From an uncultured Granulicella sp. (GTDB taxonomy: Bacteria > Acidobacteriota > Terriglobia > Terriglobales > Acidobacteriaceae): a DNA stretch of 64,000 bases. The stretch lies in the NCBI GenBank assembly GCA_965225725.1, contig CBDDBI010000010.1, positions 169,229-233,228 of the forward strand, read 5' to 3'. The notes beneath the pieces were generated by a model. The model had not been told where the DNA came from and made no database searches. It saw only the letters and a list, made by a program, of their open reading frames with translations. The translations under genes and the position numbers were made by a program. This document shows, piece by piece, positions 4,427 to 37,980 of the stretch (position 1 is the first letter of the stretch; each line of letters opens with the position of its first letter).

Positions 4427-4475
4427 CGCGAAGCGCGTCCGGCGTACGCAGTACCGCCCGCCCGGCGTCAGGGCG
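4427..4475. repeat. Single arm of the modular palindromic element (family 1)
   Basis: 4439-4475 is the exact 37-bp reverse complement of 35108-35144. Confidence 0.8.
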
Positions 4476-4523
4476 TTACTTGTCTTCTGTTCCAGTTCCG
4501 ACTCGAGCACCAGATAGCTCGCC

Positions 4524-5033
4524 CTACTCCTTACCCCCGCTCCACTCCAGATAGCTCCGCCAATCCGTCTGCCCCGGCATCTGCGTCTGGAACTTGCCCG
4601 CCATCACGCCGCCTGAAAGTTCATAGGTCAGGCGAAACCGCGGGCCCGGCCCCGGCTCCGACAGAAACACCGCGGAGGTCGGCGTCGGCGTGGTCACATC
4701 GTAGTGAATCGTGTGCCCTTCGTTGTCGAAGTAGATCGCCTTCAGCGGCTGCCCCGGCCGATCCTCGTACACATACAGCAGATCCCCGTGCTCGCAGTCG
4801 AACGTCGCCGGCCCCTTGCACTTCGGGTCGCTCGAACTATGCCGCGCCAGCACATGCCCGCCCAGTTCATGGCGAAATGTATATACGCCGCTCGTCGCCA
4901 CGCCGCCGGCGCTCGCAACCCACGTCCCTTCGAGAAACCCGAGCGACTTCCACGCATCCGCGCCCGACGCAGGCGCCTGGCCCAACAGCGGCATAGCCCC
5001 AATCATCACCGACACTGCAAGCAGCTTCCTCAT
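4524..5033 (-). CDS. Secreted hypothetical protein, possibly calycin/DUF1794-like beta-barrel
   Basis: Signal peptide MRKLLAVSVMIGAMPLLGQA, then WKSLGFLEGTW (LxGxW start typical of lipocalin-like barrels); codon pattern of a real gene. Confidence 0.65.
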   Translation of the reverse strand: MRKLLAVSVMIGAMPLLGQAPASGADAWKSLGFLEGTWVASAGGVATSGVYTFRHELGGHVLARHSSSDPKCKGPATFDCEHGDLLYVYEDRPGQPLKAIYFDNEGHTIHYDVTTPTPTSAVFLSEPGPGPRFRLTYELSGGVMAGKFQTQMPGQTDWRSYLEWSGGKE

Positions 5034-5084
5034 CGCGTCATCCTTTCGTCCTGCGTTCGCAATACCCCGTTGTAAACTCGACCC

Positions 5085-6095
5085 ATGCTCTCACGCGTTG
5101 CCGACTCTCTCTACTGGATGTCCCGCTACCTCGAGCGTGCCGAGCATACAACCCGCCTGCTCGACGTCAACCTGAACCTGATGCTGGATGAGTCGGCCGC
5201 ATCGGCGGAAAAGCGGTGGCGTCGCGTTCTGCACGCTCTCAACAAGCCAAAGGACATCAAGTGGCACGGCGATCCCTACGACCTCGTTCGCTGCCTCACC
5301 TTTGATACCGAGTCGCGCTCCTCTATTCTCTCGCTTCTTATCTCCGCCCGGGAAAACTCCCGCCATGTTCGCGAGCAAATCTCCACCGAGCAGTGGCACC
5401 GTCTCAACTCGCTCTATCTCGCGGTCACGCGCCCCGACCTCCAGCGCCAGCCCGAGCCCGGCACCATGGCCGCCTCGGTCGGCATGGAGCCCGAAGTCCC
5501 CACCGAGTTCCTCCAGCAGGTGATGGAGGCCGTGCACCAGTTCCAGGGCGTTTCCGACTCCACCATGAGCCACGGCGAAGGCTGGCAGTTCATCCAGGTC
5601 GGCCGCTACATCGAGCGCGCCTCCGCCACCGCCTCGCTCCTCATCGCGTACCACGACGACCTTTGGGGCGAGCACACGGCCGACAAGCTCGAATCGAACG
5701 AATATCTGGACTGGATGGGCCTGCTGCGCTCGGCAACCGCCTTCGAGGCTTACTGCAAGGTCTACACCGCAGACCTGACGCCCGACCGCATCCTCGAATT
5801 CCTCCTGCTCGACGAGGAGTTCCCCCACTCGCTCCGCTTCGCCATCGACTCCATGCAGCACGCACTCGATGCCATCGACCGCAACTCCGGTGGCGTCCGC
5901 ACCGAGCCCCTGCAGCGCATCGCCGGCAAGGTCCAGGCCGCGCTCGCCTACTCCTCCGTGGACGAGATTTTCGAACGCGGCGTCGTCCCCTATCTTCACC
6001 GGATCCAGCACCAGCTCTCCGAGATTCACGACACCATGTACAACCTGTACATCGACTTCACGATTCAATCCGCCCTTACGGGGGCAAGCGCCTGA
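5085..6095 (+). CDS. Alpha-E domain protein (DUF403)
   Basis: MLSRVADSLYWMSRYLERAE, ARENSRHVREQIS, GRYIERA and FPHSLRF motifs. Confidence 0.92.
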   Translation: MLSRVADSLYWMSRYLERAEHTTRLLDVNLNLMLDESAASAEKRWRRVLHALNKPKDIKWHGDPYDLVRCLTFDTESRSSILSLLISARENSRHVREQISTEQWHRLNSLYLAVTRPDLQRQPEPGTMAASVGMEPEVPTEFLQQVMEAVHQFQGVSDSTMSHGEGWQFIQVGRYIERASATASLLIAYHDDLWGEHTADKLESNEYLDWMGLLRSATAFEAYCKVYTADLTPDRILEFLLLDEEFPHSLRFAIDSMQHALDAIDRNSGGVRTEPLQRIAGKVQAALAYSSVDEIFERGVVPYLHRIQHQLSEIHDTMYNLYIDFTIQSALTGASA

Positions 6096-6097
6096 CG

Positions 6098-6222
6098 GCA
6101 GCTTCTAGCTCCTAGCTTCTAGCTTCTAGCTAAAGACTTTTCTTGAAACGTCCGAGTTGGAGAACCGCATCATCCCGCATTTGCCTCTAGCTAGAAGCTA
6201 GGAGCTAGAAGCTAGAAGCTGC
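6098..6222. repeat. 35-bp inverted repeat built from tandem TAGCTTC heptamers
   Basis: Arms 6098-6132 and 6188-6222 match at 33/35 as reverse complements; 55-nt loop. Confidence 0.9.
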
Positions 6223-6242
6223 TCTTCTCCAAAGGAGAAACA

Positions 6243-7238
6243 ATGCTCTACTCCATCCGCCACCTCACGAAGTTCCTCTACTCCGCGCCGGTCTCCGAAT
6301 CCATGATGGAGACGCGCATGCACCCGCGCTCCGATGCCAACCAGCGCTGCCTTACCTTCCATCTATCGGTCTCGCCGCGCTGCCGCGTGTTCTCGTACCG
6401 CGATCACCTCGCCAACAACGTGCATCACTTCGATATTCCCGGCCAGCATCGGCAGCTCGTCATCGTCGCCGAATCGCTGGTCGAGGTTCAGCCCCAGCCC
6501 GACCTTCCCAGCTTTCTCGCGCCCGACGCCTGGCAGGATCTTGACGCTATCGTCGCCGCCGGCGACTACTGGGAGTTCCTCTTTCCGTCGGAGTTCTGCG
6601 CGCCCACCCCGCGACTCGACCAGCTCGCCACCGATCTCGACGTCCGCCGCCGCGACGACCCGCTCATGCTCCTGCATGAGCTCAACGAGCGCCTCTTCCG
6701 CTACTTTGACTACGTACCCCGCTCCACCAAGGTCGACTCCCCCATCGACCTCGCGCTCGAGAACCGCAAGGGCGTCTGCCAGGACTTCGCCCACATCATG
6801 ATCACGCTCATCCGCTCGAAGCTGCGCATCCCCTGCCGCTACGTCTCCGGCTACCTCGCGCACCGCCCCACCGACGAGGAGACCGATCGCTCTCGCGCCA
6901 GTGCCACCCACGCCTGGGTGGAGGTGCTGCTGCCGCACTTCGGGTGGGTCGGCTTCGACCCCACCAACTGGCTGATCGCGGGCGAACGCCACATCCGCAC
7001 CGCCATCGGCCGCGACTATGCCGATGTCCCGCCCACCCACGGCATGTTCCGCGGCCGTGCCACGTCGGAGCTCACGGTCGCGGTCCGCGTTACCCCTACC
7101 CAGGGCACGCCCATCCTCGACCAGGAGCTTCCCGTCCCCGAAGACTGGTCGATTCTTGTTGAAAAGGCACAGGCTTTGCCGGAGGGCCCACCCCCGCTCA
7201 CCCGCCTGCAGCAGATGGCGCAACAACAGCAGCAGTAG
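6243..7238 (+). CDS. Transglutaminase family protein with N-terminal Bact_transglu_N domain and poly-Gln tail
   Basis: Triad GVCQDFAH (Cys), ATHAW (His), GFDPTN (Asp); GRDYADVPP; SD aaggag at 6231. Confidence 0.92.
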   Translation: MLYSIRHLTKFLYSAPVSESMMETRMHPRSDANQRCLTFHLSVSPRCRVFSYRDHLANNVHHFDIPGQHRQLVIVAESLVEVQPQPDLPSFLAPDAWQDLDAIVAAGDYWEFLFPSEFCAPTPRLDQLATDLDVRRRDDPLMLLHELNERLFRYFDYVPRSTKVDSPIDLALENRKGVCQDFAHIMITLIRSKLRIPCRYVSGYLAHRPTDEETDRSRASATHAWVEVLLPHFGWVGFDPTNWLIAGERHIRTAIGRDYADVPPTHGMFRGRATSELTVAVRVTPTQGTPILDQELPVPEDWSILVEKAQALPEGPPPLTRLQQMAQQQQQ

Positions 7239-7310
7239 CCGTTCACCCTTGCCGAAGACGGCCCGAAGTTTTCATAGGATGGCACTCGCCGGCAGCCGGG
7301 AAAGTATGTC

Positions 7311-7338
7311 TTGACAAGGATGCTTCGACTTTTATAAA
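7311..7338 (+). promoter_or_regulatory. Sigma70 promoter of the TonB receptor gene
   Basis: TTGACA (7311-7316), 16-nt spacer, TATAAA (7333-7338). Confidence 0.65.
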
Positions 7339-7355
7339 ACCGTCTTTGTTCTGAA

Positions 7356-7613
7356 CTGAAGCGATTTAGTACTGCGAACCGAGACCCTCCCCAAGACACG
7401 AAAACCGGTCGCAGTCCAAACCCTGCCCTTCGAGTAACGACCACTGAAGGAAAGTCAGAACGGAAGCTCACAGCGTTCCGCAAGCGGACCTGTGTTTCTC
7501 ATTCGCTCCGTATCCCACAACCCGTCGAGGATCGCCTTTGTGCGTCCTTCAACTGTTCAGCACGGCTTCCGATCGTGGAAGACCGCTCAAAAAGGTTTAG
7601 TAAATCGATTCAG
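7356..7613. promoter_or_regulatory. Two inverted near-identical 16-mers, LacI-type operator-like (7356-7371 and 7598-7613)
   Basis: ctgaagcgatttagta versus the reverse complement of tagtaaatcgattcag match at 14/16; both are CG-centred pseudo-palindromes. Confidence 0.45.
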
Positions 7614-7634
7614 GCAACTCTTTCAGGAGTACCA

Positions 7635-10600
7635 ATGACACACCGCTTCAATCGGCTCCTCCCCAGGAAGACCGTACTCGGCACCAGTCTTCTCGCCGCC
7701 ACATGCTTCATCCCGGCCACAGCCCTACTCTTCACCCCGTCAGCCTTCGCCCAGGTTCAAAGCGGCACCCTCACCGGCACCGTCACCGACCCAACCGGTG
7801 CGGTCATCCCCAATGCCGCCATCGTGCTCACCAACCAGGCAAACGGTTCTAAGTTCACCAGCAAAAGCAATGGATCCGGCTCCTTCACTTTCACCGGCCT
7901 GCCCACGGGAGACTTCGCCATCAGCATCTCTTCGCCGGGCTTTCAGTCGTTCACGGAGAAGGGTATCCACCTCGACCCAGGTGACAGCCGCAGCCTTTCG
8001 AGCCTTAAGCTGGCCACCGGCGACACCAGCCAGTCCGTCACCGTCGAAGCGCAGGAAGACATCCCGCTCGACACCGGCGAGAAGTCCGACCTTATCACCG
8101 CCGAAGAGATCAAGCACCTCTCGGTCGAAGGCCGCGATGTCTCCGAGCTCTTCAAGACGCTGCCCGGTTTCGCTATCTCGTCGCAAAACAACACCAATGT
8201 CAATAACCAGGCCTACGACCCGTCGCAGACCAGCGTCGGCGGCGCGGCTGGCTCTTACTCGCCCAACGGCAGCATCCAGGGCATCAACATTCACCTGGAC
8301 GGCGCCAACGTCACCGACCCCGGCAACTATGGCGGCGGCCTGATCAACGTGAACTACGACCAAGTGGCCGAGGTGAAGGTGCAGACCTCGAACTTCGGAG
8401 CCGATGTGTCAAACGGCCCCATCGTCGTCAGCGTCGCCACCAAGTCCGGCACAGATCACTTCCACGGCGAACTCTACACCTACGCCCGTACGGCGGCGCT
8501 CAACTCCTCCGACGCGCTCAACGGTCCCACCAGCCAGCCCAAGGATCCCGAGCACGAGGTTTATCCTGGCTTTGCGATCGGCGGCCCGGTCCTGATCCCC
8601 GGAACCAACTTCAACCACAACCGCAAGCTCACCTTCTTCGCCGGCGCCGAAGACTACGCGCAGCGTTCGGTCTACGCCTACGGAAGCTCCGGCAGCGCCA
8701 TCGTCCATGGTCTTGTACCCACGGCGGCCATGCGTGCAGGAGACTACAGCGCCGCTTCGATCCAGAGCTTCCTCGGCCCCAACCTCTGCACCACGCCCAC
8801 CGCGTCCACCATGCAGACGGGCTCACCGTGCGCAAACACCAGCAACTATGCCTCCATCGACGTCGTGCCGACCTTCGACAAGAACGGCAATGCGATCGTC
8901 AACGGGCAGCTCCCGGCGACCGATATCGACCCGGGCATGGCGTACATCTTCAACACGTTTCCGTTGCCGAACAACGTGCCGACTGTCGCCAATCCCTACA
9001 ACTACCAGACCGACGACTACATCAATAACGATCTGTGGCAGGCGATCGGCCGCATCGACCTCGACATCAACGATAAGAATCATCTCTTCGCCCGCTACGA
9101 CACGGAGCATGGTGTCGCCGGGGAACCGGCAGCCGTCTACTACAACCCGAACGGAATCAACACGCCGGGCGGCGGCGGTCTCGAGCACACCAACGCGCAG
9201 TCGATGGCTGCAAACCTGACCACCATCATCAGCCCGACGATGACCAACCAGGTCTTCGCCAACCTCGTGTATCTGGATCAAAACTTCACCAGCGCGAACG
9301 TCTCCGTACTCACCGGGTACCCATACCAGGGTGCGTATGCGAACGGCCGTCACGTGTTGCCGCAGATCCAGGCTTACAACTCGCCCAGCGGCTCCGGCGG
9401 TCTACCTCTGGACATCGTTCCCGACTACTCGCTCGGCCCTGTTTTCGCACACAAGTTCGATCCCGAAGCCGGCGACAACGTCACCAAGGTCTGGGGTAAG
9501 CACACCGCCATTTTCGGCGTTTACGGTCAGCGCATCACCAACAACGAAGAAGAGACCAACCAGATCACAAACGGCGCCATCTCCAACTACTACCAGCCCG
9601 GCGCAGGATCGACCCAGGCCGACCTCAATGGCAACACTGTTACCTTCTCCGGTAACTTCTCCACCAACGAACTCGAAGGTTATGTCGGTGGCTACCAGCA
9701 GCAGAATGTGCTGCCCTCGGTCAACCTCTACTTCTGGAACACGGCCTTCTTCGCCACCGACTCCTGGAGGATCGGCAGCAACCTCACCTTCAACTACGGC
9801 GTTCGTTTCGATCACCAGGGCCTGTGGAACGATCAGGATGGCAAGGGCGTCGCGGTCTTCGATGCGTCGCAGATCACCAACCCCAGCCAGGGTTCACCGT
9901 ATCCGGGATTCCTGTGGCACGCGATCGATAAAAACATCCCGCTCTCCGGTGCAAAGTCCTACCCGTTCTTCGTCGAGCCTCGCGTTGGTTTCGCGTGGGA
10001 TACTCGCGGTAACGGCAAGACCGTACTCCGCGGCGGATGGGGTGAGTTCCGCGCACACGATTCCTGGAACAACACCTCCAACAGCGTCGAAGTTACGCAG
10101 AACGTTCAAACCTACACCACCGGCATCGCGTCGCTCGCCGCAATCAGCGGCTTGAACATCGCCAACCCGACCGCGGTCAACCGCACCTCGTACCTGACCA
10201 CGGGCGCGATGTATGCCACCACCCCTGGCGATCGCGAGCAGCCGCTCAGCGACACCTACAGTCTCACCTTTGACCAGGCATTGCCCAGCCACATCCACCT
10301 GGTCGTGAGCTACGTCGGAGCCAACAACCGCTTCCTCATCAACGGTGGCAGCACCCAGCCCGTCACGCTCGATAATGTCAACGCCATTCCGATCGGCGGC
10401 TTGTACCAGCCCGACCCGGACCCGGCCAGCCCGCAGTATGGACGGGTGCTGACCAACCTGAACGCCAACACGCTTCCCTACAGCCCTATCTACACGTCGA
10501 ATGCCGCCGGCGCCAGCACCCAGCAGCAGGATGAGTACCGCCCGCTGAATACCGCGAACGTTCAGTACAACGACATCGATGTGACCAACCACAACCTCTT

Positions 10601-11435: not shown

Positions 11436-11457
11436 CCCAACCAGATCAACCGCGCCA

Positions 11458-11499
11458 AACAGAAACGCCCCACTCCGAAAGAAGTGGGGCGTTTCTGTT
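11458..11499. terminator. Intrinsic (probably bidirectional) terminator between convergent genes
   Basis: 17-bp stem aacagaaacgccccact / agtggggcgtttctgtt with T/A tracts on both sides. Confidence 0.85.
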
Positions 11500-11567
11500 G
11501 TTGGTTCCTTAGTCTGAATCAGTACTGATCGGTCCAATCCGTCTGATCGGTGTTAAGCCTTCCCTGC

Positions 11568-12338
11568 CTACAGGTTCAGCTTCTTGAACACCCGCTCCGG
11601 GATGTGCTGGATCACCCACATAATCGGGCCCCACTGGAACGGCACATACAGGTTGTCCGCCTTCGCGTCGATCGCCTTCACGATTGTCTGCGCCACGGCA
11701 TTCACATCCGCCATCTTCTCCGCGCCCGGCATGTGCGAGGTCATCGCCGTGCGCACCGGACCCGGCTTGATATTGAGGATGGTGACACCCTCGCGGTCGA
11801 CGCGATTTCGCAGCCCGCCAAGAAACGCCGACAGCGCCGCCTTCGAGCTGCCATAAAGGTAGTTCGACTTACGCCCTCGATCCCCCGCCACCGACGAGAT
11901 CACCGCCAGCACGCCCGCATGACGCTGGACGCAGAAGTTAGCCAGCCACGTCAGCAGCGACACCGCCGAGATGAAGTTGGTATGGATAATCTGTGCCGCC
12001 GTGGCGAAGTCTTGTTCCGCCCTGGCCTGGTCGCCCAGGATTCCGTGCGCAAGGTACGCCACATCCATCCCGCCCAGCGAGTTGATAGCGTGAGCCAGCA
12101 GCGCCGGGTGCTGCGTCGTATCGTCCAGATCGGACAACGCCGTGTCGACGTATCCGGCACCGCGTGTCTTCAGATCGGCCGCAACCGCCGCCAGCTTCTC
12201 AGCATTGCGTGCAACCAGGAAAAGGCTCGCGCCCTGCGAAGCCCAGATGCGGCAGGTTGCCTCGGCAATGCCCGACGTTGCGCCCAGAACCAGTATCTTC
12301 CGGCTTGCCGCCGGCGAAGTCGAAGCAGATGTACTCAT
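11568..12338 (-). CDS. SDR oxidoreductase, DprE2-like
   Basis: VLGATSGIA and SSVAGDRGRKSNYLYGSSKAAL (YxxxK); overlaps the DprE1-like stop codon. Confidence 0.85.
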   Translation of the reverse strand: MSTSASTSPAASRKILVLGATSGIAEATCRIWASQGASLFLVARNAEKLAAVAADLKTRGAGYVDTALSDLDDTTQHPALLAHAINSLGGMDVAYLAHGILGDQARAEQDFATAAQIIHTNFISAVSLLTWLANFCVQRHAGVLAVISSVAGDRGRKSNYLYGSSKAALSAFLGGLRNRVDREGVTILNIKPGPVRTAMTSHMPGAEKMADVNAVAQTIVKAIDAKADNLYVPFQWGPIMWVIQHIPERVFKKLNL

Positions 12339-13726: not shown

Positions 13727-13771
13727 ACTCCTAGGATAGCGTCTTCAACGCAAAAGATGTTGCGGAAAGCA

Positions 13772-13835: not shown

Positions 13836-13837
13836 AG

Positions 13838-14607: not shown

Positions 14608-14686
14608 GGTGTTCCCTTTAGGGTCGCCGACGGACAAGCGACATCTGCCAGTCTACACCAAAAGCGGCAGAAATCGTTTCGTAACT

Positions 14687-14866
14687 TGTCCTGCCGGACG
14701 GGCCCGCTCATCGCGCGGGGCGAGCCCTTCAGGCCGTATTGGGCTTCGCTTTATCTCCCGTCGGTCGCGAGGATAGACCCTGTGCCGACCAAAGGGAGGA
14801 CCACGCGAAGCAACAACCCCGCGAAGTGGTCGCTCCGCTCGATGAGCGGGCCCGTCCGGCAGGACA
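14687..14866. mobile_element. Modular palindromic element (MITE/BIME-like, family 1), full copy
   Basis: Perfect 27-bp terminal inverted repeat tgtcctgccggacgggcccgctcatcg plus an internal hairpin module. Confidence 0.8.
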
Positions 14867-14966
14867 TGCATTTGTATGCAGTAACCTGCATCAACATTCA
14901 CCGTCTTCGGCCTTTAATCCGACGTATCCTAGTCGTAGCCCCCACCTTAGAGAAAAAGAGGCCTCC

Positions 14967-16163
14967 ATGGTTTCGCTCGATCTCGACCTCATCGCCCTCG
15001 AAGACCAGTACGGCGCCCACAACTACCACCCGCTCGACGTCATCATCGCGCGCGCCTCCGGCTCCTGGGTCTACGACGTCGACAACCGGCGCTACCTCGA
15101 CTTCCTCGCCGCCTACTCCGCCGTCAACCAGGGCCACTGCCACCCGGCCATTCTCCAAGCCCTTACAGAACAAGCCCGCCGCGTCACCATCACCTCTCGC
15201 GCCTTTCGCAACGACCAACTGCCGCTCCTGCTCCGCGATCTCCACGAAATCACCGGCTTCGACGTGGCGCTACCGATGAACTCCGGCGCCGAAGCCGTCG
15301 AAACCGCGCTCAAGGCCGCGCGCAAATGGGGCGAAACCATCAAGGGCGTGCCCGCCGGCCGGGCCGAGATTCTCGTCTGCGGCAACAACTTCCACGGCCG
15401 CACCATCTCCATCGTCGGCTTTTCGTCCGAAGCCCAGTACCGCCACGGCTTCGGCCCCTTCGCCCCCGGCTTCGCCGCCGTCCCCTTCGGCGATATCGAA
15501 GCCCTCCGCCACGCCATCACCCCCAACACCGTCGCCTTCCTCGTCGAACCCGTCCAGGGCGAAGCCGGCATCATCCTGCCGCCCCCGGGCTACCTCGCGC
15601 AGGTCGCCGCGATCTGCCAGCAGCATAACGTCCTGCTGATGTGCGACGAGATTCAATCCGGCCTCGGCCGCACCGGCCGCCTCTTCGCCTTCGAGCACGA
15701 TGGCATCCGCCCAGACGTCTGCATCATCGGCAAGGCGCTCTCCGGCGGCTTCTACCCGGTCTCCGCCGTGCTCTCGCGCAAGGACGTTCTCGGCGTCTTC
15801 CGCCCCGGCGACCACGGCAGCACCTTTGGCGGCAATCCGCTCGCCTGCGCCGTCGCCCGCGCCGCGCTCAAGGTCGTCGTCGACGAAGACCTGCCCGCAC
15901 GCTCCGCCGAGCTCGGCTGCTACGCGCTCGACCGCCTCCAGCGCCTGCGCTCGCCCATCCTGCACGAGGTCCGCGGCAAGGGTCTTTGGATCGGCATCGA
16001 GCTGAACGTGCCGGCACGTCCACTCTGCGAAGCCCTCAAGAACCGCGGCGTGCTCTGCAAGGAGACGCACGAGAACGTCATCCGCCTGGCCCCGCCGCTC
16101 ACCATCGCCCCCGACGACCTGGCCTGGGGCATCGACCAGATCGAAGCGGTTCTAACCGCCTGA
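14967..16163 (+). CDS. rocD: Ornithine--oxo-acid transaminase
   Basis: GAHNYHPLDV, FLAAYSAVNQGHCHP, PMNSGAEAVETALK, DEIQSGLGRTG, GKALSGG and HGSTFGGNPLA. Confidence 0.93.
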   Translation: MVSLDLDLIALEDQYGAHNYHPLDVIIARASGSWVYDVDNRRYLDFLAAYSAVNQGHCHPAILQALTEQARRVTITSRAFRNDQLPLLLRDLHEITGFDVALPMNSGAEAVETALKAARKWGETIKGVPAGRAEILVCGNNFHGRTISIVGFSSEAQYRHGFGPFAPGFAAVPFGDIEALRHAITPNTVAFLVEPVQGEAGIILPPPGYLAQVAAICQQHNVLLMCDEIQSGLGRTGRLFAFEHDGIRPDVCIIGKALSGGFYPVSAVLSRKDVLGVFRPGDHGSTFGGNPLACAVARAALKVVVDEDLPARSAELGCYALDRLQRLRSPILHEVRGKGLWIGIELNVPARPLCEALKNRGVLCKETHENVIRLAPPLTIAPDDLAWGIDQIEAVLTA

Positions 16164-16169
16164 AAACCC

Positions 16170-16354
16170 TGTCCTGCCGGACGGGCGCCCTGGTCGCGGG
16201 CGGCGAGCACTTCGTGCCGTATTGGGCTTCGCGTGGCGCTCCCGTTGGTCGCGAAGCAGGGATGTCCCGCGCCCGACCAACGGGAGGACCACGCGAAGCT
16301 CCCAGCGTACGCAGTACCCGCCGCCCGCGGTCAGGGCGCCCGTCCGGCAGGACA
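16170..16354. mobile_element. Modular palindromic element (family 1), full copy
   Basis: 23-bp perfect TIR tgtcctgccggacgggcgccctg; central ctcccgttggtcg/cgaccaacgggag hairpin. Confidence 0.8.
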
Positions 16355-16375
16355 TGCCTTTCAGCACCTCGCGCA

Positions 16376-16384
16376 TGTTACAAT
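16376..16384 (+). promoter_or_regulatory. Extended -10 promoter of gyrB
   Basis: TGtTACAAT about 85 nt upstream of ATG 16470. Confidence 0.5.
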
Positions 16385-16415
16385 TTAGCTACGGGCAAGC
16401 GGGACAAACTGATGA

Positions 16416-19148
<2,733 letters not shown>

Positions 19149-19436: not shown

Positions 19437-19868
19437 ATGCCCACCAACGAAATCGAAGCCGCAGTGCAAATGACACCGCAAACCGCAGCCACCGCACCCA
19501 ACCCGCAAGACGCCGCCAACTGGTTCGAGATCCCCACCGCCGACCTCGAACGCGCCACCACCTTCTACGAACTCCTCCTCGGCCGCGAACTCCGGCGCGG
19601 CTTCTTTGGCGAACCCATGAGCCTCTTCGCCTCATCCCAGACCGGCGTCGGCGGAGCTCTCATCCATCGCGACCAGCAGCCACCCTCCTCGTGCGGCTCG
19701 CTCGTCTACCTCAACTGCGACTCCGGCCTTGCCTCCGCGCTCGACCGCATGACCGCCGGCAAACGCGGCCAGGTCGTCGTCCCCATCACCCCTGTCCCCG
19801 GCGGCCTCGGCATCTTTGCCGTCATCCGCGATTCCGAGGGCAACCACGTCGGACTCCACGAACACTAG
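19437..19868 (+). CDS. VOC/glyoxalase family protein
   Basis: NWFEIPTADLERATTFY, LVYLNCD and FAVIRDSEGNHVGLH; SD gaggag. Confidence 0.9.
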   Translation: MPTNEIEAAVQMTPQTAATAPNPQDAANWFEIPTADLERATTFYELLLGRELRRGFFGEPMSLFASSQTGVGGALIHRDQQPPSSCGSLVYLNCDSGLASALDRMTAGKRGQVVVPITPVPGGLGIFAVIRDSEGNHVGLHEH

Positions 19869-19874
19869 ATCATC

Positions 19875-20053
19875 TGTCCTGCCAGACAGGCGCCCTAACC
19901 GCGGGCAGCGGGTACTGCGTACGCCGGGAGCTTCGCGAGACCTCCCGTTGGTCGGCACAGATCTTCGTGCCGACCAAAGGAAGGAGCGACGCGAAGCCCA
20001 ACACAGCCCGAAGGGCTCGCCCCGCGCGACGAGCGGGCCCGTCCGGCAGGACA
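19875..20053. mobile_element. Modular palindromic element (family 1), full copy with arms in swapped order
   Basis: tgtcctgccagacaggcgccct...gagcgggcccgtccggcaggaca with central ttggtcggcac/gtgccgaccaa hairpin. Confidence 0.8.
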
Positions 20054-20071
20054 TATCCTCTAAACTTCCTT

Positions 20072-25198: not shown

Positions 25199-26008
25199 AT
25201 GCCGGATCAGGCCGACGCGTCGCACTCGCAATCCGGTTCGCCAGCCCCCACGCCCCCCCTTATCGAAGCCCGCAACCTCACCAAGCGCTACGGCGCCGCA
25301 ACCGTCGTCGACAACGTCTCGCTCACGCTCCACCGCGGCGAGACGCTCGGGCTCGTCGGCGAATCCGGCTCCGGCAAAAGCACCGTCGCGCGCATGATCC
25401 TGCGGCTCATCGAGCCCACCGCCGGCTCCGTCCACTTCGACTCCACCGACGTGCTCGCCGCCAACCAACGCGACCTCCGCAGACTCCGCTCGCGCATGCA
25501 GATGGTCTTCCAGGACCCCTTCGCCGCGCTCAACCCGCGCATGCGCGTCCGCGACATCGTCGCCGAACCCTTCCACATCCAGGGCGGCTTCTCCCGCAGC
25601 CACATCCTCGCCCGCACCGCCGAACTCCTCGCCGAGGTCGGCCTTGAACCCGACGCACTCCCCCGCTACCCGCACGAGTTCTCGGGCGGCCAGCGGCAGC
25701 GCATCAACATCGCCCGCGCCCTCGCCCTCAAACCCGACTTCCTGGCCTTAGACGAACCCGTCAGCGCCCTCGACGTCTCGGTCGGCGCCACCGTCATCAA
25801 CCTGCTGCGCGATCTCCAGCGCAAGCACGGCCTCACCTACCTCTTCATCTCGCATTCCATGCCGCTCATCCGCTACCTCTCGGACAACGTTGCCGTCATG
25901 GAGCGCGGGCGCCTGGTCGAAACCGGCCCGGTCCTCCAGGTCTGCGACCATCCCCGCGAACCCTACACCCAGCGCCTCATCGCCGCCACGCCCGAACTCC
26001 CAATCTGA
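25199..26008 (+). CDS. Peptide/nickel ABC transporter ATP-binding subunit (OppF/DppF-like), orphan
   Basis: GESGSGKS Walker A, YPHEFSGGQRQRI signature, DEPVSALD and HPREPYT. Confidence 0.92.
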   Translation: MPDQADASHSQSGSPAPTPPLIEARNLTKRYGAATVVDNVSLTLHRGETLGLVGESGSGKSTVARMILRLIEPTAGSVHFDSTDVLAANQRDLRRLRSRMQMVFQDPFAALNPRMRVRDIVAEPFHIQGGFSRSHILARTAELLAEVGLEPDALPRYPHEFSGGQRQRINIARALALKPDFLALDEPVSALDVSVGATVINLLRDLQRKHGLTYLFISHSMPLIRYLSDNVAVMERGRLVETGPVLQVCDHPREPYTQRLIAATPELPI

Positions 26009-26014
26009 AAACAA

Positions 26015-26168
26015 GTCCTGCCGGACGGGCCCGCTCACCACGCGGGGCGGGTACTGCGTACGCCGGGAGCTTCGCGTGCGCACGCGCCACAGTATCTCGT
26101 GCCGACCAACGGGAGGATCACGCGAAGCGATTACGGCACGAAGTGCTCGCCGCCCGCGACTAGGGCGC
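26015..26168. mobile_element. Modular palindromic element (family 1), right end truncated
   Basis: gtcctgccggacgggcccgctc...gtactgcgtacgccgggagcttcgcg...cgcccgcgactagggcg. Confidence 0.75.
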
Positions 26169-26190: not shown

Positions 26191-26988
26191 GTGACTGTGA
26201 TTCACGCCCTCTCCCTCCATTGGCGCTTCCTCTGGCTCGTCTTCGCCTCGCTCATCGCCGGCATTATGAACGCCATGGCTGGAGGAGGTTCTTTCATTTC
26301 TTTTCCCGCGATGCTCGGAATGGGAATTCCGCCGGTCGAAGCAAACGCCACAAACACAGTCGCGCTTTGGCCCGGACAACTGACTTCGCTCGCGTCCCTC
26401 CGCAAAGACGTCCGAACCGACTTGCTCACGCTCGTCCTCGGAACGTCCGTCATTGGCGGAATCACCGGCGCGGAAACGCTTCTGCACACGCGTCAGCTCA
26501 CCTTTCTCCACCTGATTCCCTGGCTTTTGCTCATGGGAGCCTCGATCTTCGGCATCTCTGGACCAGTCTCCAAATGGCTGCGAAACCGCTCGGTCAAAGA
26601 CGCCTCTCAGCCACAAGTTGAACCGCCAATCAACCAGTTCGCGCTCTTCTTCGGCCTCTTTCCCATCTGCTTCTACATCGGATATTTTGGCGCGGGAGGA
26701 GGATTCCTCATCATGACCGTTCTAGCGCTCTTCGGCATGGAACAGATGCATCAGCTCAACGCCATGAAGGTCGTCGCAGCCTGCGCCTCGAACCTCTTTG
26801 CCATCTTCACCTTCATCGCCAGCGGCCGCATCGTCTGGCACGATTGCCTGGTCTCGATGGTCTTCGCCGCAACCGGAGGATTGATCGGAGCGCATTACGC
26901 CAAGCGGATGAATCCCGCAATCCTGCGCGCGGTCGTCGTCATCACCGGACTCACAATCGCCGCATACTTCTTCTACCGTCAGCGCTGA
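26191..26988 (+). CDS. Sulfite exporter TauE/SafE family membrane protein
   Basis: AGIMNAMAGGGSFISFP, ANATNTVALWPG and FYIGYFGAGGG. Confidence 0.88.
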   Translation: MTVIHALSLHWRFLWLVFASLIAGIMNAMAGGGSFISFPAMLGMGIPPVEANATNTVALWPGQLTSLASLRKDVRTDLLTLVLGTSVIGGITGAETLLHTRQLTFLHLIPWLLLMGASIFGISGPVSKWLRNRSVKDASQPQVEPPINQFALFFGLFPICFYIGYFGAGGGFLIMTVLALFGMEQMHQLNAMKVVAACASNLFAIFTFIASGRIVWHDCLVSMVFAATGGLIGAHYAKRMNPAILRAVVVITGLTIAAYFFYRQR

Positions 26989-26989
26989 C

Positions 26990-27037
26990 ACGCGAAGCGT
27001 TCACGCCACGAAGTGGTCGCTGCCCGCGATCAGGGCG
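26990..27037. repeat. Single arm of family 1 element
   Basis: acgcgaagc...cacgaagtggtcgctgcccgcgatcagggcg matches the arms at 14866 and 26168. Confidence 0.65.
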
Positions 27038-28830: not shown

Positions 28831-28915
28831 ACTTCGATTATCGCTTAGGTATGTCGCTCGACGATAACGAAGCACCTGGCGTCTAGAAACACTTGTAGCT
28901 CAAAGTAGGTTGGAG

Positions 28916-30257: not shown

Positions 30258-30283
30258 GATAGAGGTTGGGGTTTCTCAACGGA

Positions 30284-33130
<2,847 letters not shown>

Positions 33131-33186
33131 CCATCCCCGGCCAGGCCACTCGCCCGCACACCTTTCGAAAAGAGATCAGCAATCCC

Positions 33187-33342
33187 ATGGCAAACACCAA
33201 GAGCATTACCGATAAAGAAGAGCGCAAGAAGATCAAGCGGACTGCGCGGCGCAAGGCCGCTCCGAAGGCTCCGCGCACCGGCGCGCGTGGCGAGAACAAG
33301 GCGAAGGTGAAGAAGGCTTCGCGCGGTCAGTCGAAGCGCTAA
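33187..33342 (+). CDS. Small highly basic protein (51 aa, 20 Lys+Arg), below the ORF-track cut-off
   Basis: MANTKSITDKEERKKIKRTARRKAAPKAPRTGARGENKAKVKKASRGQSKR; fills the pcrA-permease gap; biased AAG/CGC codons. Confidence 0.75.
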   Translation: MANTKSITDKEERKKIKRTARRKAAPKAPRTGARGENKAKVKKASRGQSKR

Positions 33343-33541
33343 GCGTCGAAAGCTTAGGAGCGGCTGCCCCACGATCGGCGCGACATGCGCAGATCGTGGG
33401 GTCTTCGTGTTGGTGGAGCGTCGCGAGGTCGCGGCTTGCGATAACGTGCGCTTTGAACCATGGGAACATGGGGCAACGAGGGTTTCGTTGTAAGGTGGTG
33501 TTAATAACTGCCACTCCCACGCCTGGAGCGACCGCGTCCCC

Positions 33542-35104
33542 TTGCCGAGACAAATCTTTGCTAAAAAGTCCATCGACAAACTTATCTCCGACTCCGAGCG
33601 CCCGGAACATGCGCTGAAGAAGACGCTTGGGCCGGTTTCGCTGACCGCGCTTGGGGTTGGCATCGTGATCGGCTCAGGCATCTTCACGGTGATTGGTACC
33701 GCGATTGGCGGAAATCCTGCAACGACGGCGACGTGGTCGGAATCGCCTGTGATCGACCTGATCTGGGGTGCGCTGCACCATACGAGCGGGGTGGTTGCGG
33801 GCCGTCCCGGCGCAGGGCCGGCGCTGGTCATCTCGCTGTTGCTCGTCGCGTGTGTGTGCGCGCTCACCGGGCTGTGCTACGCGGAGCTCGCGAGCATGAT
33901 TCCGATCGCGGGGTCCGCCTACACCTATTCCTATGCGACTCTGGGCGAGTTGATCGCGTGGATTATCGGATGGGACCTGATTCTCGAATACGCGTTTGCC
34001 AATATGAGCGTCTCGGTGGGCTTCGCGGCGCACCTGGTGAATTTGCTTGACTGGTTCGGAATTCATCTTGACCCGAAGTGGCTGGAGCCGGCGTACCTGC
34101 CGCTGGGCGCGCAGGACCTGGCCGGGCACGATATCTTTGCGCCCGGGCTGCACTTTGGATTTGATATTCCAGCGTTCCTGATCGTGCTGATCATCACCTA
34201 CCTGCTGGTGCGCGGCATTCGCGAGTCGGCGCGGACGAACAACGCCATGGTGCTGATCAAGATCGGCGCCATTCTCACCTTCGTCTTCTTCGGCCTGAGC
34301 TTCATCCACCCGGCGTACTACCATCCGTTTGCGCCGACCGGAATGGGCGGGATCTTGGCTGGCGGGTCCATTATCTTCTTCACGTACATCGGCTTCGATG
34401 CCGTTTCGACGGCTTCGGAAGAGTGCAAGAAGCCGCAGCGCGATGTGCCGATTGGCATCATTGCGACGCTGATCGTTTGCACCGTGCTCTACATCGGCGT
34501 GGCGGCTGTGCTTACGGGTCTCGTGCCCTGGCAGTCGGTTGCGGGAGATGGAGCGCCAGTGGTGAACGCGCTGCAGCGCGTAGCGCTGACGCCGGGTGCG
34601 CATCGTCTGCACTGGGTTCGTCTTGCGGTGCTCTTCGGGGCGATTCTCGGGATGGTTTCGTCGATCCTGGTGGGGCAGTATGGGCAGGCGCGCATCTGGT
34701 TTGCGATGTCGCGCGACCGACTGCTGCCGGACCGCTTCAGCAACATCCACCCGCGGTTTCGCACTCCGGCCTTCGCCACCTGGGTTGCGGGCATCCTGGT
34801 TGCAATTCCAGCGGGGCTGTTCGACGTGGGTACGCTGGCGGAGATGTCGAACATCGGAACGCTGTTTGCGTTTGTGCTGGTTTCGATCGGCGTGATCGTG
34901 CTGCGCTACAAGGATCCGGAGCGCCCGCGTGGGTTCCGCGTGCCGTTCGGCCCGGTGATACCGATTCTGAGCGTGTGCTTTTGCATCCTGCTAATGGCTG
35001 GGCTGCCGGCGCGGACTTGGATTCGCTTCTTTCTATGGCTGATCATTGGGCTCTTTGTCTACGTGCTGTACTCGCGCAAGCGCAGCGAGTTCTACGAACA
35101 GTAG
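33542..35104 (+). CDS. Amino acid permease (APC superfamily, cationic amino acid transporter-like)
   Basis: LGVGIVIGSGIF, YAELASMIPIAGSAYTY, FFTYIGFDAVST and QARIWFAMSRD. Confidence 0.93.
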   Translation: MPRQIFAKKSIDKLISDSERPEHALKKTLGPVSLTALGVGIVIGSGIFTVIGTAIGGNPATTATWSESPVIDLIWGALHHTSGVVAGRPGAGPALVISLLLVACVCALTGLCYAELASMIPIAGSAYTYSYATLGELIAWIIGWDLILEYAFANMSVSVGFAAHLVNLLDWFGIHLDPKWLEPAYLPLGAQDLAGHDIFAPGLHFGFDIPAFLIVLIITYLLVRGIRESARTNNAMVLIKIGAILTFVFFGLSFIHPAYYHPFAPTGMGGILAGGSIIFFTYIGFDAVSTASEECKKPQRDVPIGIIATLIVCTVLYIGVAAVLTGLVPWQSVAGDGAPVVNALQRVALTPGAHRLHWVRLAVLFGAILGMVSSILVGQYGQARIWFAMSRDRLLPDRFSNIHPRFRTPAFATWVAGILVAIPAGLFDVGTLAEMSNIGTLFAFVLVSIGVIVLRYKDPERPRGFRVPFGPVIPILSVCFCILLMAGLPARTWIRFFLWLIIGLFVYVLYSRKRSEFYEQ

Positions 35105-35106
35105 AA

Positions 35107-35216
35107 GCGCCCTGACGCCGGGCGGGCGGTACTGCGTACGCCGGGAGCTTCGCGTGAAAGCCAATATCCCACGAAGTGGTCGCCGCGCGGGATGAGCGCG
35201 CCCGTGCGGCAGCACA
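35107..35216. repeat. Family 1 element lacking the central hairpin (arm A + arm B)
   Basis: gcgccctgacg...gtactgcgtacgccgggagcttcgcg followed by cacgaagtggtcgc...cccgtgcggcagcaca. Confidence 0.75.
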
Positions 35217-35219
35217 TCC

Positions 35220-35951
35220 TCACTCCTCGTCGTTATCCTTGAAGGCGACGACTTCGTCTGTGGCATCGCTGGCGCGAAGCTCCGCCAGCAGCCGGCGATG
35301 CATTGGCTTGGTCGCCACGACCGAAAACGCCACCCGCTCCAGGCCGCCGATATTGTCGCGGTCGAGCACGGCCAGGCGCTCGCCGGCTCCGTCGAGCACG
35401 GACAGAATCGCTCTCTGCATCCGCTGTAGCGCGGCCTCTGTGTCTGTCGCAGCGCGGACATCGGCGCGCACCTCGTAGACCATGGCGTAGCGCTTCCAGC
35501 CGAGATTGCCTTCGAAGGCGCCGATGATCTGCAGCAGGATGAGCACGAGTCCGGTGGCGATCGCGGCCTCCACATACAAGCCGGCGCCGCAGGTCATGCC
35601 GATAGCCGCAACGACGAAGACGGTGGCCGCGCTGGTGAGGCCAATGGTCTTGCTCTTGGTGTGCAGGATGAGGCCAGCACCCAGGAAGCCGACGCCCTGC
35701 ACGATGTTCGCGGCGATCTGCCCGCGGTTCGAGGTCTGGTCACCGGCGATAACGACGGACATGATGGTGAAGAGCGCGGAGCCCATTGAGATGAGCATGT
35801 TGGTGCGGAGGCCGCTGTCTTTATGTCGCCATTCGCGCTCAATACCAATGAGGCCGCCCATCGCGCAGGCCATCAGCAGACGCGTGGTCGAGCTCTGCGA
35901 GAGCAGCATCTGTTGGAAGGTTGAGAAGTGGAGATGGCTGGGATCGATCAT
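35220..35951 (-). CDS. MgtC/SapB family membrane protein
   Basis: GGLIGIEREW, GLRTNMLI, IAANIVQGVGFLGAG and GLTSAATVF. Confidence 0.9.
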   Translation of the reverse strand: MIDPSHLHFSTFQQMLLSQSSTTRLLMACAMGGLIGIEREWRHKDSGLRTNMLISMGSALFTIMSVVIAGDQTSNRGQIAANIVQGVGFLGAGLILHTKSKTIGLTSAATVFVVAAIGMTCGAGLYVEAAIATGLVLILLQIIGAFEGNLGWKRYAMVYEVRADVRAATDTEAALQRMQRAILSVLDGAGERLAVLDRDNIGGLERVAFSVVATKPMHRRLLAELRASDATDEVVAFKDNDEE

Positions 35952-36037
35952 CCTGGTTGGGCTCAAGCGCCAGAATACGCTCGCAGCGAGGCAGTTTGAA
36001 CACGGGGAATCCGCGTGGGCACGAGTATCCTTAGAAG

Positions 36038-37087
36038 ATGCCGCGCAAGCAACAACCCGCACCTGTCATCGAAATCCCGGAATGGCTTCGGCACCTGCCG
36101 AAGGCTGAGCTGCACCTGCACCTCGAAGGCACGATCGTGCCGGAGACGCTGCTTGAGTTATCGAGGCGGCACGATGCCGAGCCGCTGACGCTGGAATCGA
36201 TTCGCGAGCTTTACGTCTATAAGGATTTTCTCGGCTTCATGGATGCGTTCAAAGCAGTTTCATCGCGGCTGAAAGGCCCGGACGACTACGAGCTGATTAC
36301 GTACAACATGATTCGCGATCTGGCCGCTCAGGGCGTCGTCCACGCCGAGGTGTATATCTCGTTCGGGATTATCTACTACTGGAAGAACACGGCGGTTGAG
36401 CCGTTTGTAGAGGCGATCGAGCGGGCGCGGGTGCGGGCCGAGCAGGAGTTTGGCACGACCATCTACTGGCTGATTGATGCCGTGCGGCACTTCGGCGCGG
36501 AGGAGGCGCAGAAGGTCTTTCGCAAGGCGGCGGAGCTGCGCACGACCTATCCGAGCATCGTAGGGATCGGGATTGGCGGCGATGAGGCGCGCGGCGCGGC
36601 CGACCTGTTCAAAGAGAGCTACGCGGAGGCCAAAGCCGCCGGGCTGCGGCTTACGGCGCACGCGGGGGAGACTGGCGGGCCCGTGAATGGGCCGGCGAGC
36701 ATCTGGGCGGCGCTGAACATCGGCGCCGAACGGATTGGACATGCGCTGGCCGCGCAGCACGATAGCGACTTGATGCGGGTGTTGAGCGAGAAGCAGGTGC
36801 CGCTGGAGCTGAACCTGACTTCGAATATCCGGACGGGTTGCTGCGCGAGGTTCGAGGAGCATCCGCTGCGACGGTACTTCGAGGAGGGACTGATGATTAC
36901 GATCAACTCCGACGATCCGCCGATGTTCGGATCAAACCTGCTGGAGGAGTACGTGCTGGTGCAGAAGCTGTTCGAGTTCTCGCTGGAGCAGATGCGGGAG
37001 CTGGCGGCGAATTCGGTGGAGGCCAGCTTTTTGCCACCTGAGCGCAAGCTGAAGTTGCTGGCGGCGATCGAGCAGTATCGGGCTTGA
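36038..37087 (+). CDS. add: Adenosine deaminase
   Basis: LPKAELHLHLEG, AHAGE, RIGH and NSDDPPMFG. Confidence 0.92.
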   Translation: MPRKQQPAPVIEIPEWLRHLPKAELHLHLEGTIVPETLLELSRRHDAEPLTLESIRELYVYKDFLGFMDAFKAVSSRLKGPDDYELITYNMIRDLAAQGVVHAEVYISFGIIYYWKNTAVEPFVEAIERARVRAEQEFGTTIYWLIDAVRHFGAEEAQKVFRKAAELRTTYPSIVGIGIGGDEARGAADLFKESYAEAKAAGLRLTAHAGETGGPVNGPASIWAALNIGAERIGHALAAQHDSDLMRVLSEKQVPLELNLTSNIRTGCCARFEEHPLRRYFEEGLMITINSDDPPMFGSNLLEEYVLVQKLFEFSLEQMRELAANSVEASFLPPERKLKLLAAIEQYRA

Positions 37088-37101
37088 AACGGAGACAAAA
37101 A

Positions 37102-37190
37102 CGCTCTCGCAAAGAGCGCAAAGGAAGCCAGGTTACGCCAAGGTTTTCCTTCGCGCAACTTGGCTCGCTTGGCGCTCTTTGCGAGAGCGC
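37102..37190. repeat. Inverted repeat of family 3 (CGCTCTCGCAAAGAGCGC)
   Basis: cgctctcgcaaagagcgc versus gcgctctttgcgagagcg; the same unit recurs at 51887-51914; lies between convergent genes. Confidence 0.75.
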
Positions 37191-37198
37191 TTTTTGCT

Positions 37199-37843
37199 TT
37201 AACGGGGCGCGGGCACCATGACGGCGCTGGGGTCTACCTTGGGGATGCCGAAGTGGCCTCCCAGGTGCATCAGGTCAAGTGGGCGCAGGTCGCAGGCTAC
37301 CTGGATAACGTTCATGTTCTTGGGGCCGCGGGTGAGGACGGTGACCGCGTCGACGTCGGAGCCGGAGAAGTGCAGCCACATGTCGGTGATGGTCTTACTC
37401 GGCTGGGCGCTGTTGGCGGGAGTCTGGTTGGCGTTGACGAGATGCTTCCATCCGGCGGCCTTGTAGCTATCAAGCAGGGCCGTCATCGCTTCGGGCGTGT
37501 AGAAGGCTGGCTGCTTGTAGTGGTAGGTATCAAAGGTGACGCCGCGAAGCGCAAGCGCCGCTCGCTTGGCGTCCATGCCGTTGGCCTCCAGGATGCCCTG
37601 CGCGACGGCTAGCGAATCCTTGTCGAAGGTATAGCCGAAGTGGGTGGCGGGCTGGTCGGTGAGCGAGGCGAGCTCCTGCGAGAAGTTGGGCGGCTGCGGA
37701 AGCGGAACGGCAGGCGCTGACGCCCCATAGGCGTCAGGTGGAGGCGGCGCAACGGAGGCGGCGTACTGCTGAGTGAACTGCTGTTGGGCGAAGGCGGGGG
37801 CGCTGAGCAGCGCGGCGAGGAGGAGGGTTGAAGTTGCACGCAT
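37199..37843 (-). CDS. Secreted hypothetical protein, possibly DUF4252-like
   Basis: Signal peptide ending AFAQ; C-terminal DLRPLDLMHLGGHFGIP. Confidence 0.6.
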   Translation of the reverse strand: MRATSTLLLAALLSAPAFAQQQFTQQYAASVAPPPPDAYGASAPAVPLPQPPNFSQELASLTDQPATHFGYTFDKDSLAVAQGILEANGMDAKRAALALRGVTFDTYHYKQPAFYTPEAMTALLDSYKAAGWKHLVNANQTPANSAQPSKTITDMWLHFSGSDVDAVTVLTRGPKNMNVIQVACDLRPLDLMHLGGHFGIPKVDPSAVMVPAPR

Positions 37844-37902
37844 GCGAGGTTCTCCTGCAGGAGTTAGACCCCGGTTTGAAAAGAAAGTTTGCGTTCAAGG
37901 CT

Positions 37903-37980
37903 TGTCCTGCCGGACGGGCCCGCTTGTCGCGCGGAGCGAGCAATTCGTGCCGTGATCGCTTCGCGTGGCCGCGCGGCACA
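37903..37980. repeat. Half copy of family 1 element
   Basis: tgtcctgccggacgggcccgct...gcttcgcgtgg. Confidence 0.75.

Follow-up and report, generated by a model that had tools for sequence, protein, structure and literature searches.

A dispersed family of covarying hairpin repeats, probably of the REP/BIME kind, in the genome of an uncultured Granulicella

The described repeats that come closest to those reported here are the repetitive extragenic palindromes (REPs) of Escherichia coli (types y, z1 and z2), which build bacterial interspersed mosaic elements (BIMEs); the REP doublets forming hairpins (REPINs) of Pseudomonas fluorescens; the CGTC-tagged REPs; and the foldback miniature inverted-repeat transposable elements (MITEs), a group that contains Correia/NEMIS, ERIC and RUP and among which RIME of Sinorhizobium is also counted. 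For the Acidobacteriaceae, which are among the most abundant soil bacteria, dispersed repeats are to our knowledge essentially undescribed. In this study, we consider a stretch of 64,000 nucleotides (the window) from an uncultured Granulicella sp., namely positions C10:169229-233228 of a 5.45-Mb genome in 14 contigs with 62% G+C (G000, the genome meant below unless another is named). A first-pass annotation of the window had listed eight copies of a ~180-bp palindromic element and had called them mosaic palindromes of a BIME/REPIN/MITE-like kind, and as a statement of kind this is supported by our analysis. Our reading, to which we give a probability of roughly 0.6, is that the repeats form a genus-restricted, noncoding and dispersed family of the REP/BIME kind that spread via single-stranded DNA (ssDNA) hairpins at the replication fork, was later reshaped, and likely has an effect at mRNA 3′ ends. 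The family was previously undescribed and is not a member of any named family. Because it lacks defining features of the REPINs with their REP-associated tyrosine transposases (RAYTs), of the CGTC REPs, of the MITEs and of integron attC sites, we file it beside the REP/BIME repeats and outside the named families.

The building block of the family is a unit of ~85 nt rather than an element of ~180 bp, although pairs of 160-190 bp do exist. The unit consists, in order, of a weakly conserved (T)ARAGRCTT, the T hairpin (GTCC-TGCC-GGAC), GGG, the S hairpin (a variable 5-bp stem with a loop of 5-7 nt), the A hairpin (a variable 4-bp stem with the loop TTC or TGC, that is, TKC), the box GCTTCGCG and the core CTCCCGTTGGTCG(GCAC). 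In a pair, two units stand head to head, and both cores form a central hairpin. Pairs fall into two size classes, 178 nt and 168 nt, the smaller of which results from a shorter inner end (CCGCGCGGCAC). A profile hidden Markov model (HMM) trained on 192 verified units was used for a genome-wide census, and 355 units at 243 loci were found instead of only the few copies in the window; together they occupy 28.6 kb, or 0.53% of the genome. Head-to-head pairs account for 109 of the 243 loci (55 with both T ends, 45 with one and 9 without any), single units for 133 (61 with T and 72 without), and a double pair for one. The inverted doublet that characterizes REPINs is present in this sense, and terminal inverted repeats, TGTCCTGCCGGACGGG ... 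CCCGTCCGGCAGGACA, are found at 55 loci, while the T end is missing from ~40% of the units. The terminal 16-mer has 138 exact occurrences in the genome and the core 17-mer has 58, so that the terminal, arm and central-hairpin motifs picked out in the first reading were right; the reversed pattern of the terminal 15-mer, used as a control, has none. All 119 copies of the core 13-mer CTCCCGTTGGTCG lie inside loci of the family.

The three short hairpins are backed by covariation. The A stem is perfectly complementary over its 4 bp in 307 of the 355 units and occurs as CCAC/GTGG, GTAC/GTAC, GCAC/GTGC, GCCC/GGGC, TCAC/GTGA, CTAC/GTAG and others; its pairs are Watson-Crick in 96-98% of units versus the 46-75% expected from the make-up of the columns. 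The S stem occurs in at least six variants (CCCGC, CGCCC, CGCGC, CGTCC, CTCGC and CCCAC), Watson-Crick pairing between its columns 27 and 41 (27-41) and between 29 and 39 (29-39) is seen in 96-97% of units versus 48-51% expected, and the signal is lost when the partner column is slid. The T hairpin is invariant in this genome, and in other species of the genus it reads GCGC-TGCC-GCGC or GGCC-TGYC-GGCC, which are compensatory changes. These counts take in related copies, and our argument rests on the distinct stem types, of which there are at least six for S, at least six for A and three for T. Single units folded no better than shuffled sequence; therefore, thermodynamics alone does not back the small hairpins, whereas covariation does. 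The two arm types named in the first reading were an understatement, because the A hairpin has at least six stem variants in two classes.

The module make-up of the pairs confirms the early remark that arms are shuffled between copies. Within pairs, the S type on the left does not depend on that on the right (22 the same versus 19.5±3.5 expected), and the A types of the two sides are preferentially unlike (5 the same versus 22.8±4.0 expected). When pairs are sorted by the class of the A hairpin, the two unit types are found inverted around a linker, as in BIMEs, with 69 Y-Z, 36 Z-Z and 4 Y-Y pairs. The two arms of one pair are not copies of each other.

In several respects, the family resembles the BIMEs and REPs of E. 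coli. Both are intergenic, with units inverted around a linker; in both, pairs favor unlike unit types (the y-z mosaic BIMEs, PMC8266576); and both are mosaics of a few modules whose stems are kept by compensatory change. In contrast to E. coli REPs, however, the family has no GTAG tag and by that test is not homologous to the y and z REPs, and each unit holds three short hairpins (stems of 4-5 bp) plus a 13-nt core in place of one imperfect palindrome of ~12 bp. A conserved 5′ tag, either GTAG or a variant of it, was not found upstream of T. Pairs are hardly ever iterated in tandem (1 locus), and there is no REPtron, that is, no Y1 gene flanked by units; the family also persists in Y1-free genomes. 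As in the REPINs of P. fluorescens (Bertels & Rainey, 2011; PMC3116915), two inverted units make one long hairpin, singles occur beside pairs, and the repeats are vertically inherited and lineage-specific, but within a pair the two arms differ, a cognate RAYT is lacking, and the singles are oriented with replication. The family shares with the CGTC-tagged REPs (Di Nocera et al., 2013; PMC3733652) a predominance of head-to-head dimers and frequent heterodimers, and in neither was a dedicated transposase found. The CGTC REPs differ in having stems of 8-9 bp that start with A-T, loops of 4-5 nt and a CCA tail (PMC3733652); neither their tag nor this stem, loop and tail was found in our units, which have several hairpins with GC-rich stems of 4-5 bp. 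CGTC families were not reported in Acidobacteria (PMC3733652). Integron attC sites, brought to mind by the location next to stop codons, were also considered and rejected: the ends do not fit the R''/R' core sites (RYYYAAC / GTTRRRY), and the copies do not form cassette arrays but are scattered one by one among housekeeping genes such as gyrB, purL and panC; intI was not searched.

The position of the loci relative to genes is distinctive. Ninety-five percent of the 243 loci are intergenic, with convergent gene pairs enriched and divergent pairs depleted, and in 170 (70%) the distance from one end to a predicted stop codon is no more than 15 nt. Of the 77 T ends that face the 3′ end of a gene, 47 have the stop 6 or 7 nt ahead of GTCC, and the first description of the copies as intergenic and mostly just after stop codons holds for the whole genome. 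Pairs keep to 6-7 nt from the stop even when a spacer of 100-500 nt is free on the far side, and in convergent contexts both stops abut the element. The trinucleotides near the ends are mixed (TAA 46, TAG 42 and TGA 34), which indicates that they are real stop codons and that there is no fixed sequence target. For E. coli REPs, too, many copies are placed within 15 nt of a stop codon (PMC12306157).

The orientation of the single units follows replication. Relative to the strand of the flanking gene, they show no preference (37 with and 34 against), and this speaks against pairing of their core CCTCCC, as an anti-Shine-Dalgarno sequence, with the ribosome-binding site of the next gene. On contig C8 (4.65 Mb), the GC skew peaks at 1.14 Mb and is lowest at 2.94 Mb; 23 single units are on the plus and 4 on the minus strand between 0 and 1.2 Mb, and 6 and 28, respectively, between 1.2 and 2.8 Mb. 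The orientation tracks the replichore split at 1.14/2.94 Mb (Fisher p = 2e-5) and is independent of the local gene strand. Because it follows the skew, the top strand of the unit lies on the strand with the lagging-strand template sequence, and because the single units are oriented with replication, they are not simply decayed pairs. In the relative G231, among the positions listed, each of the 35 unpaired T motifs within the first 1.36 Mb has plus orientation, and minus-strand motifs occur only as pair partners, which looks like a replicate of the replication-linked bias. Targeting of the lagging strand is known for the single-strand transposons of the IS200/IS605 family (PMC6006769).

To delimit the family, the exact T 15-mer was counted in 101 species of the host GTDB genus and in 141 other Acidobacteriaceae genera, each with one representative, and a covariance model of the unit was built and run on the same sample. 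The 15-mer occurs in 49 of the 101 species, with 0-215 copies each, and only 0-1 times in each representative of the other genera. Matches to the covariance model are confined to the host genus, except for one weak match in G121 that covers the core module only, and within the genus the model also found a variant T in G058, which lacks the exact 15-mer. The earlier label of lineage-specific is therefore borne out at the level of one GTDB genus against representatives of 141 others. This genus carries the names Tunturiibacter, Edaphobacter and Granulicella, and true units are found in Tunturiibacter empetritectus, T. gelidiferens and T. psychrotolerans, in Granulicella sp. S190 and L60, in Acidobacteriaceae bacterium KBS 89, and in many metagenome-assembled genomes of Edaphobacter, Granulicella and Terriglobus. 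A search of Rfam gave nothing at the gathering threshold and only chance matches to microRNA models at the E-value threshold, and a plasmid collection gave no match to the units. With no Rfam family matched and no description in the literature searched, the suggestion that the repeats were probably undescribed has been substantiated.

The copies are not young. Over 83 nt, every T-bearing unit differs from all others, the median identity to the nearest neighbor is 93%, and some sites are common to strains that are ~91% identical and to a species whose flanking DNA is 70-85% identical. The first-pass annotation had taken the family to be recently active on the strength of a 37-bp exact match between copies, but that match reflects the conserved modules. 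In G221, the species with 70-85% identical flanks, diverged single units stand at two of the window sites, and three window loci are empty at the orthologous sites of G182. Between the T. empetritectus strains M8US30 and M8UP27 (~91% identical), three single units are orthologous; their T, A and core are identical, and the S stem is swapped for another complementary stem (CCTCC/GGAGG versus CTCGC/GCGGG, and CGCCC/GGGCG versus CTCGC/GCGAG). Of the pairs in these strains, one is inverted and has a second hairpin family nested in S, and another is a deletion remnant. This second hairpin family (GGGGTCCCCGCAAAC...GTTTGCGGGGACCCC) is nested in the S module in both strains (L230 in M8UP27; L101/L231) and is a recurrent composite module. 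A search for empty sites in sister strains, as first suggested, thus yielded empty orthologous sites in relatives but no clean empty site between M8US30 and M8UP27, and in a metagenome scan for near-identical empty sites the closest relatives had at most 80% protein identity.

The strict REPIN-RAYT explanation equates the units with REPs and the pairs with REPINs and has them copied by a cognate RAYT, a domesticated Y1 transposase encoded in the same genome. Inverted pairs of hairpin units, many singles and replication-linked orientation all speak for it, as do the eight Y1_Tnp genes of the genome. Three of these are RAYT-like (C8:3204906-3205421, C8:782437-782925 and C8:3770685-3771245) and are flanked on both sides by repeat families of their own, with repeats of 35-50 nt in 50-100 genomic copies each, one of which lies at about window position 1599-1630. 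They look like ordinary REP/RAYT systems that coexist with our family, and they indicate that REP/RAYT biology operates in this genome. Furthermore, a partial unit lies ~110 nt past the 3′ end of the Y1 gene C8:2973051-2973494. However, that partial unit is one-sided, with an unrelated palindrome opposite, and none of the eight Y1 genes lies closer than 4.8 kb to an HMM-detected unit. A RAYT or TnpA gene flanked by the same arms, of the kind the first-pass annotation had proposed to look for, is not among them, and the dependence on TnpA-REP that marks BIMEs has no counterpart here, since no Y1 gene is associated with the units. In place of the GTAG tag, the upstream logo is (T)ARAGRCTT. Across the genus, Y1 genes are present in 85 of 101 genomes, and no relation between them and the element is apparent: G161, G179 and G245 have 52-71 exact T motifs and no Y1_Tnp (PF01797) match, G183, G199 and G181 have 6-8 Y1 genes and no T motif, and the repeats do not consistently co-occur with a RAYT. 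We consider it unlikely that a RAYT copies these units.

Some of these observations also weigh against our own reading, and they belong with several others. The distance between the units and any Y1 gene and the Y1-free genomes with many T motifs leave the family with no mobilizing enzyme identified. The single units between 2.8 and 4.4 Mb of contig C8, where the skew is flat, show no bias (25 plus and 22 minus), the origin and terminus were placed by GC skew only, and the gene ends come from our own open reading frame caller. Moreover, no clean presence/absence junction was obtained, so that mobility is inferred from the patchy copy number and the empty orthologous sites.

A classical MITE would be an internally deleted insertion sequence (IS) whose terminal inverted repeats of 15-25 bp (TGTCCTGCCGGACGGG...) are read by a DDE transposase that works in trans on double-stranded DNA. 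Several features fit, including the terminal inverted repeats themselves with their TG...CA-type ends, the length of 160-190 bp, an inverted symmetry that extends weakly over the outer ~9 nt, and the patchy copy number among species. The family also resembles the foldback MITEs (Correia/NEMIS, ERIC and RUP) in its size of 120-190 bp, its imperfect palindrome, its place next to genes and its likely effect on mRNA. Unlike them, it lacks a parent IS as well as target duplications, whether of TA or of another sequence, and it has many half-elements, which are oriented. No direct repeat recurs consistently in the flanks of 45 pairs, with no fresh insertion among them, in agreement with the first remark that a target-site duplication is missing; a TA- or YTAR-type duplication in particular is not supported, as the ends show mixed real stops. 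TA is not obligatory at the ends, being found at -9/-8 in only 43 of 192. The 133 single-unit loci and the ~40% of units without a T end are also difficult for a MITE, as are the covariation of the internal hairpins, the orientation with replication and the lack of a plasmid match. No parent IS with the ends of the family was found in this genome, and other genomes were not searched exhaustively. Two candidates for one were rejected. Convergent T ends 1.6-5.4 kb apart could have bounded a composite element, but those less than 6 kb apart enclose housekeeping genes (purF, purL, dUTPase, panC, nadC and similar) and no transposase. The 5-copy repeat CAAGTGCGTCCTCGTGCCGGACGGGCACC... resembles an IS end, but it is only ~70 nt long and is a variant of the unit without T. 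A MITE origin appears improbable to us, and no evidence was found for the earlier proposal that a RAYT or an IS transposase spreads the family in trans, with no unit within 4.8 kb of a Y1 gene, three high-copy relatives free of Y1 and no IS bearing these ends.

Alternatively, the element could be a functional RNA or terminator kept by selection, a stem-loop of the 3′ untranslated region (UTR) that ends transcription or protects the mRNA, with repetition being secondary. Its place 6-7 nt past stops and ahead of downstream promoters agrees with this explanation. In addition, the hairpin is very stable, its stems show compensatory changes, and T, A and the core are identical in the orthologues of two strains while nearby noncoding DNA diverges. 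However, the singles have no gene-strand preference and yet are aligned with replication. No terminator-like call falls at the ends of the elements, there is no U-tract, and the region has 13 calls versus 13.1 in shuffles. Nothing in Rfam matches. There are sister species with 0 copies, orthologous sites are empty in relatives, and copies are deleted or inverted between close strains. We regard selection for such a function as a poor explanation of the family.

Finally, it is very improbable that the 13-nt core is the site of an Acidobacteriaceae host protein (e.g., a nucleoid, topoisomerase or recombination factor) and the hairpins its lineage-specific packaging. In favor of this are the recurrence of the core 13-mer, 9-51 times in at least five other genera in different repeats, the restriction of the T module to one genus, and the link of the orientation to replication. 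Against it, there are only ~120 copies per genome, most genera have 0-2, half of the species of the genus lack the exact T motif (a count that diverged variants may escape), and there is no protein candidate. Among the other repeats that contain the core 13-mer (L238-L244; in G121, G081, G048, G070 and G126), G048 has a 148-nt tandem array, G081 has 235-nt repeats that are spaced and bear the motif GATTCCCTTCGGGAATGACAA, and G070 and G126 have hairpins whose loop contains the 13-mer.

We return to the reading that the family is of the REP/BIME kind. The units would have been spread, now or in the past, by a process acting on ssDNA hairpins at the replication fork, and the agent may be a structure-specific nuclease or a transposase supplied in trans. 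Such a process would explain why hairpins rather than sequences are conserved, why single units are aligned with replication, and why there is neither a target duplication nor a parent IS. Copies may later have been reshaped by short-patch gene conversion and by palindrome-driven inversion and deletion; inversion and deletion are observed between strains, and the pattern of S-stem swaps in M8US30 and M8UP27 is consistent with this combination. Gene conversion was proposed for the evolution of REPs (Higgins, 1988, as it appears in the references of PMC8266576). When transcribed, an element 6-7 nt past the stop would confront the terminating ribosome with a very stable stem-loop, which would also stand at the mRNA 3′ end. 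An effect on mRNA 3′-end stability and on translation termination of the upstream gene is likely by analogy, as in E. coli, REPs within 15 nt of a stop stall ribosomes and lower the expression of the upstream gene (Liang, Rudd & Deutscher, 2015, as cited in PMC12306157). The core CTCCCGTTGGTCG is conserved across several Acidobacteriaceae genera inside otherwise unrelated repeats, and we tentatively raise the possibility, a doubtful one, that it is recognized by an enzyme other than Y1, or by a host factor, that acts on ssDNA hairpins.

In the window, the eight copies first listed are real: seven loci are supported by the HMM, and the eighth is a fragment of 37 nt. The pair that illustrates the anatomy best is the full inverted pair (T> <T) at 16163-16361, between the stop TGA (16161-16163) and the gyrB leader, with GTCC beginning 7 nt past the stop. 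In its left unit, all on the plus strand, the T hairpin (GTCC-TGCC-GGAC) occupies 16171-16182, the S hairpin (5-bp stem CGCCC/GGGCG, 7-nt loop) 16186-16202, the A hairpin (GCAC-TTC-GTGC) 16207-16217, and the GCTTCGCG box, a mini hairpin GC-TTC-GC with nearly invariant columns, 16226-16233. The central hairpin (16239-16286) joins the core CTCCCGTTGGTCG at 16239-16251 with its complement at 16274-16286. The pair folds to -167 kcal/mol (z = -15 versus shuffles). In G174 and G238, this site is short and carries no element, and in a relative without the element the stop of the gene that ends at 16163 is unchanged in position.

Two further full inverted pairs (T> <T) lie upstream of a gene for a 398-aa enzyme (14682-14873; nhmmer E 3e-18 and 1e-21; site empty in the relative G182) and 7 nt past the stop TAG at 19866-19868 (19871-20060). 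At 26007-26168, between the TGA stop codon (26006-26008) and the next gene's TACAAT box, the right unit of an inverted pair is without T (T> <); this site is empty in G182, G166, G203 and G229, and G221 has a diverged single unit there. The single unit without T at 26987-27037, on the minus strand, is an insert that separates two genes with an ATGA overlap in relatives; the overlapping genes are found with an empty site in G182 and G166, and G221 again has a diverged unit. A truncated pair (> <T) without the central hairpin is at 35107-35219, and a single unit with T, on the plus strand, is at 37897-37979 (HMM E 6e-17). At 4427-4475, a repeat is present as first annotated, but it is only the fragment 4439-4475 on the minus strand, which has the A' and S' modules without T or core, is 84-90% identical to other copies, with 86-90% for their S+A modules, and falls below the threshold of the unit HMM.

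Other features of the window and genome are recorded here. The gyrB leader (16362-16470) is conserved across species, with a TTACAAT box followed by ...GGGCAAGCGGNACAAACTGNTGATTTGACGCGG, and this suggests a regulated gyrB 5′ UTR. A 6S RNA gene lies on the minus strand at 42436-42622 (Rfam RF00013, 57.7 bits) and a tRNA gene on the plus strand at 62042-62113. A second repeat family, a palindrome with 47-nt arms (AAAAACGCTCTCGCAAAGAGCGC...), is found at 37097-37194 with a related copy at 51886-51930, 14.7 kb away, and an inverted repeat at 6098-6222, with 38-nt arms built of short tandem units (GCTTCTAGCT...), stands right after a gene ending at 6095. Contig C13 (10,334 bp) has 31.8% G+C compared with 62% for the genome and almost no coding sequence recognized by a host-trained model; it is probably foreign or contaminant DNA.

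The elements produce long spurious open reading frames and break assemblies, which calls for caution in annotation, and with a copy number of 0-215 among the species of one genus they may serve as typing markers. If the core is indeed recognized by such an enzyme or factor, the elements would stand next to the GTAG and CGTC superfamilies as a third class of REP-like repeats, one that is propagated by a new machinery and has an intrinsic preference for the nucleotides directly past the stop codon. Three covarying hairpins and a core would make the family a compact system for finding the enzyme that copies REP-like repeats without a RAYT, a question that is likewise left open for the CGTC repeats (PMC3733652). 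Furthermore, it would offer a natural case outside E. coli for testing whether stem-loops within 15 nt of a stop codon modulate termination and mRNA decay.

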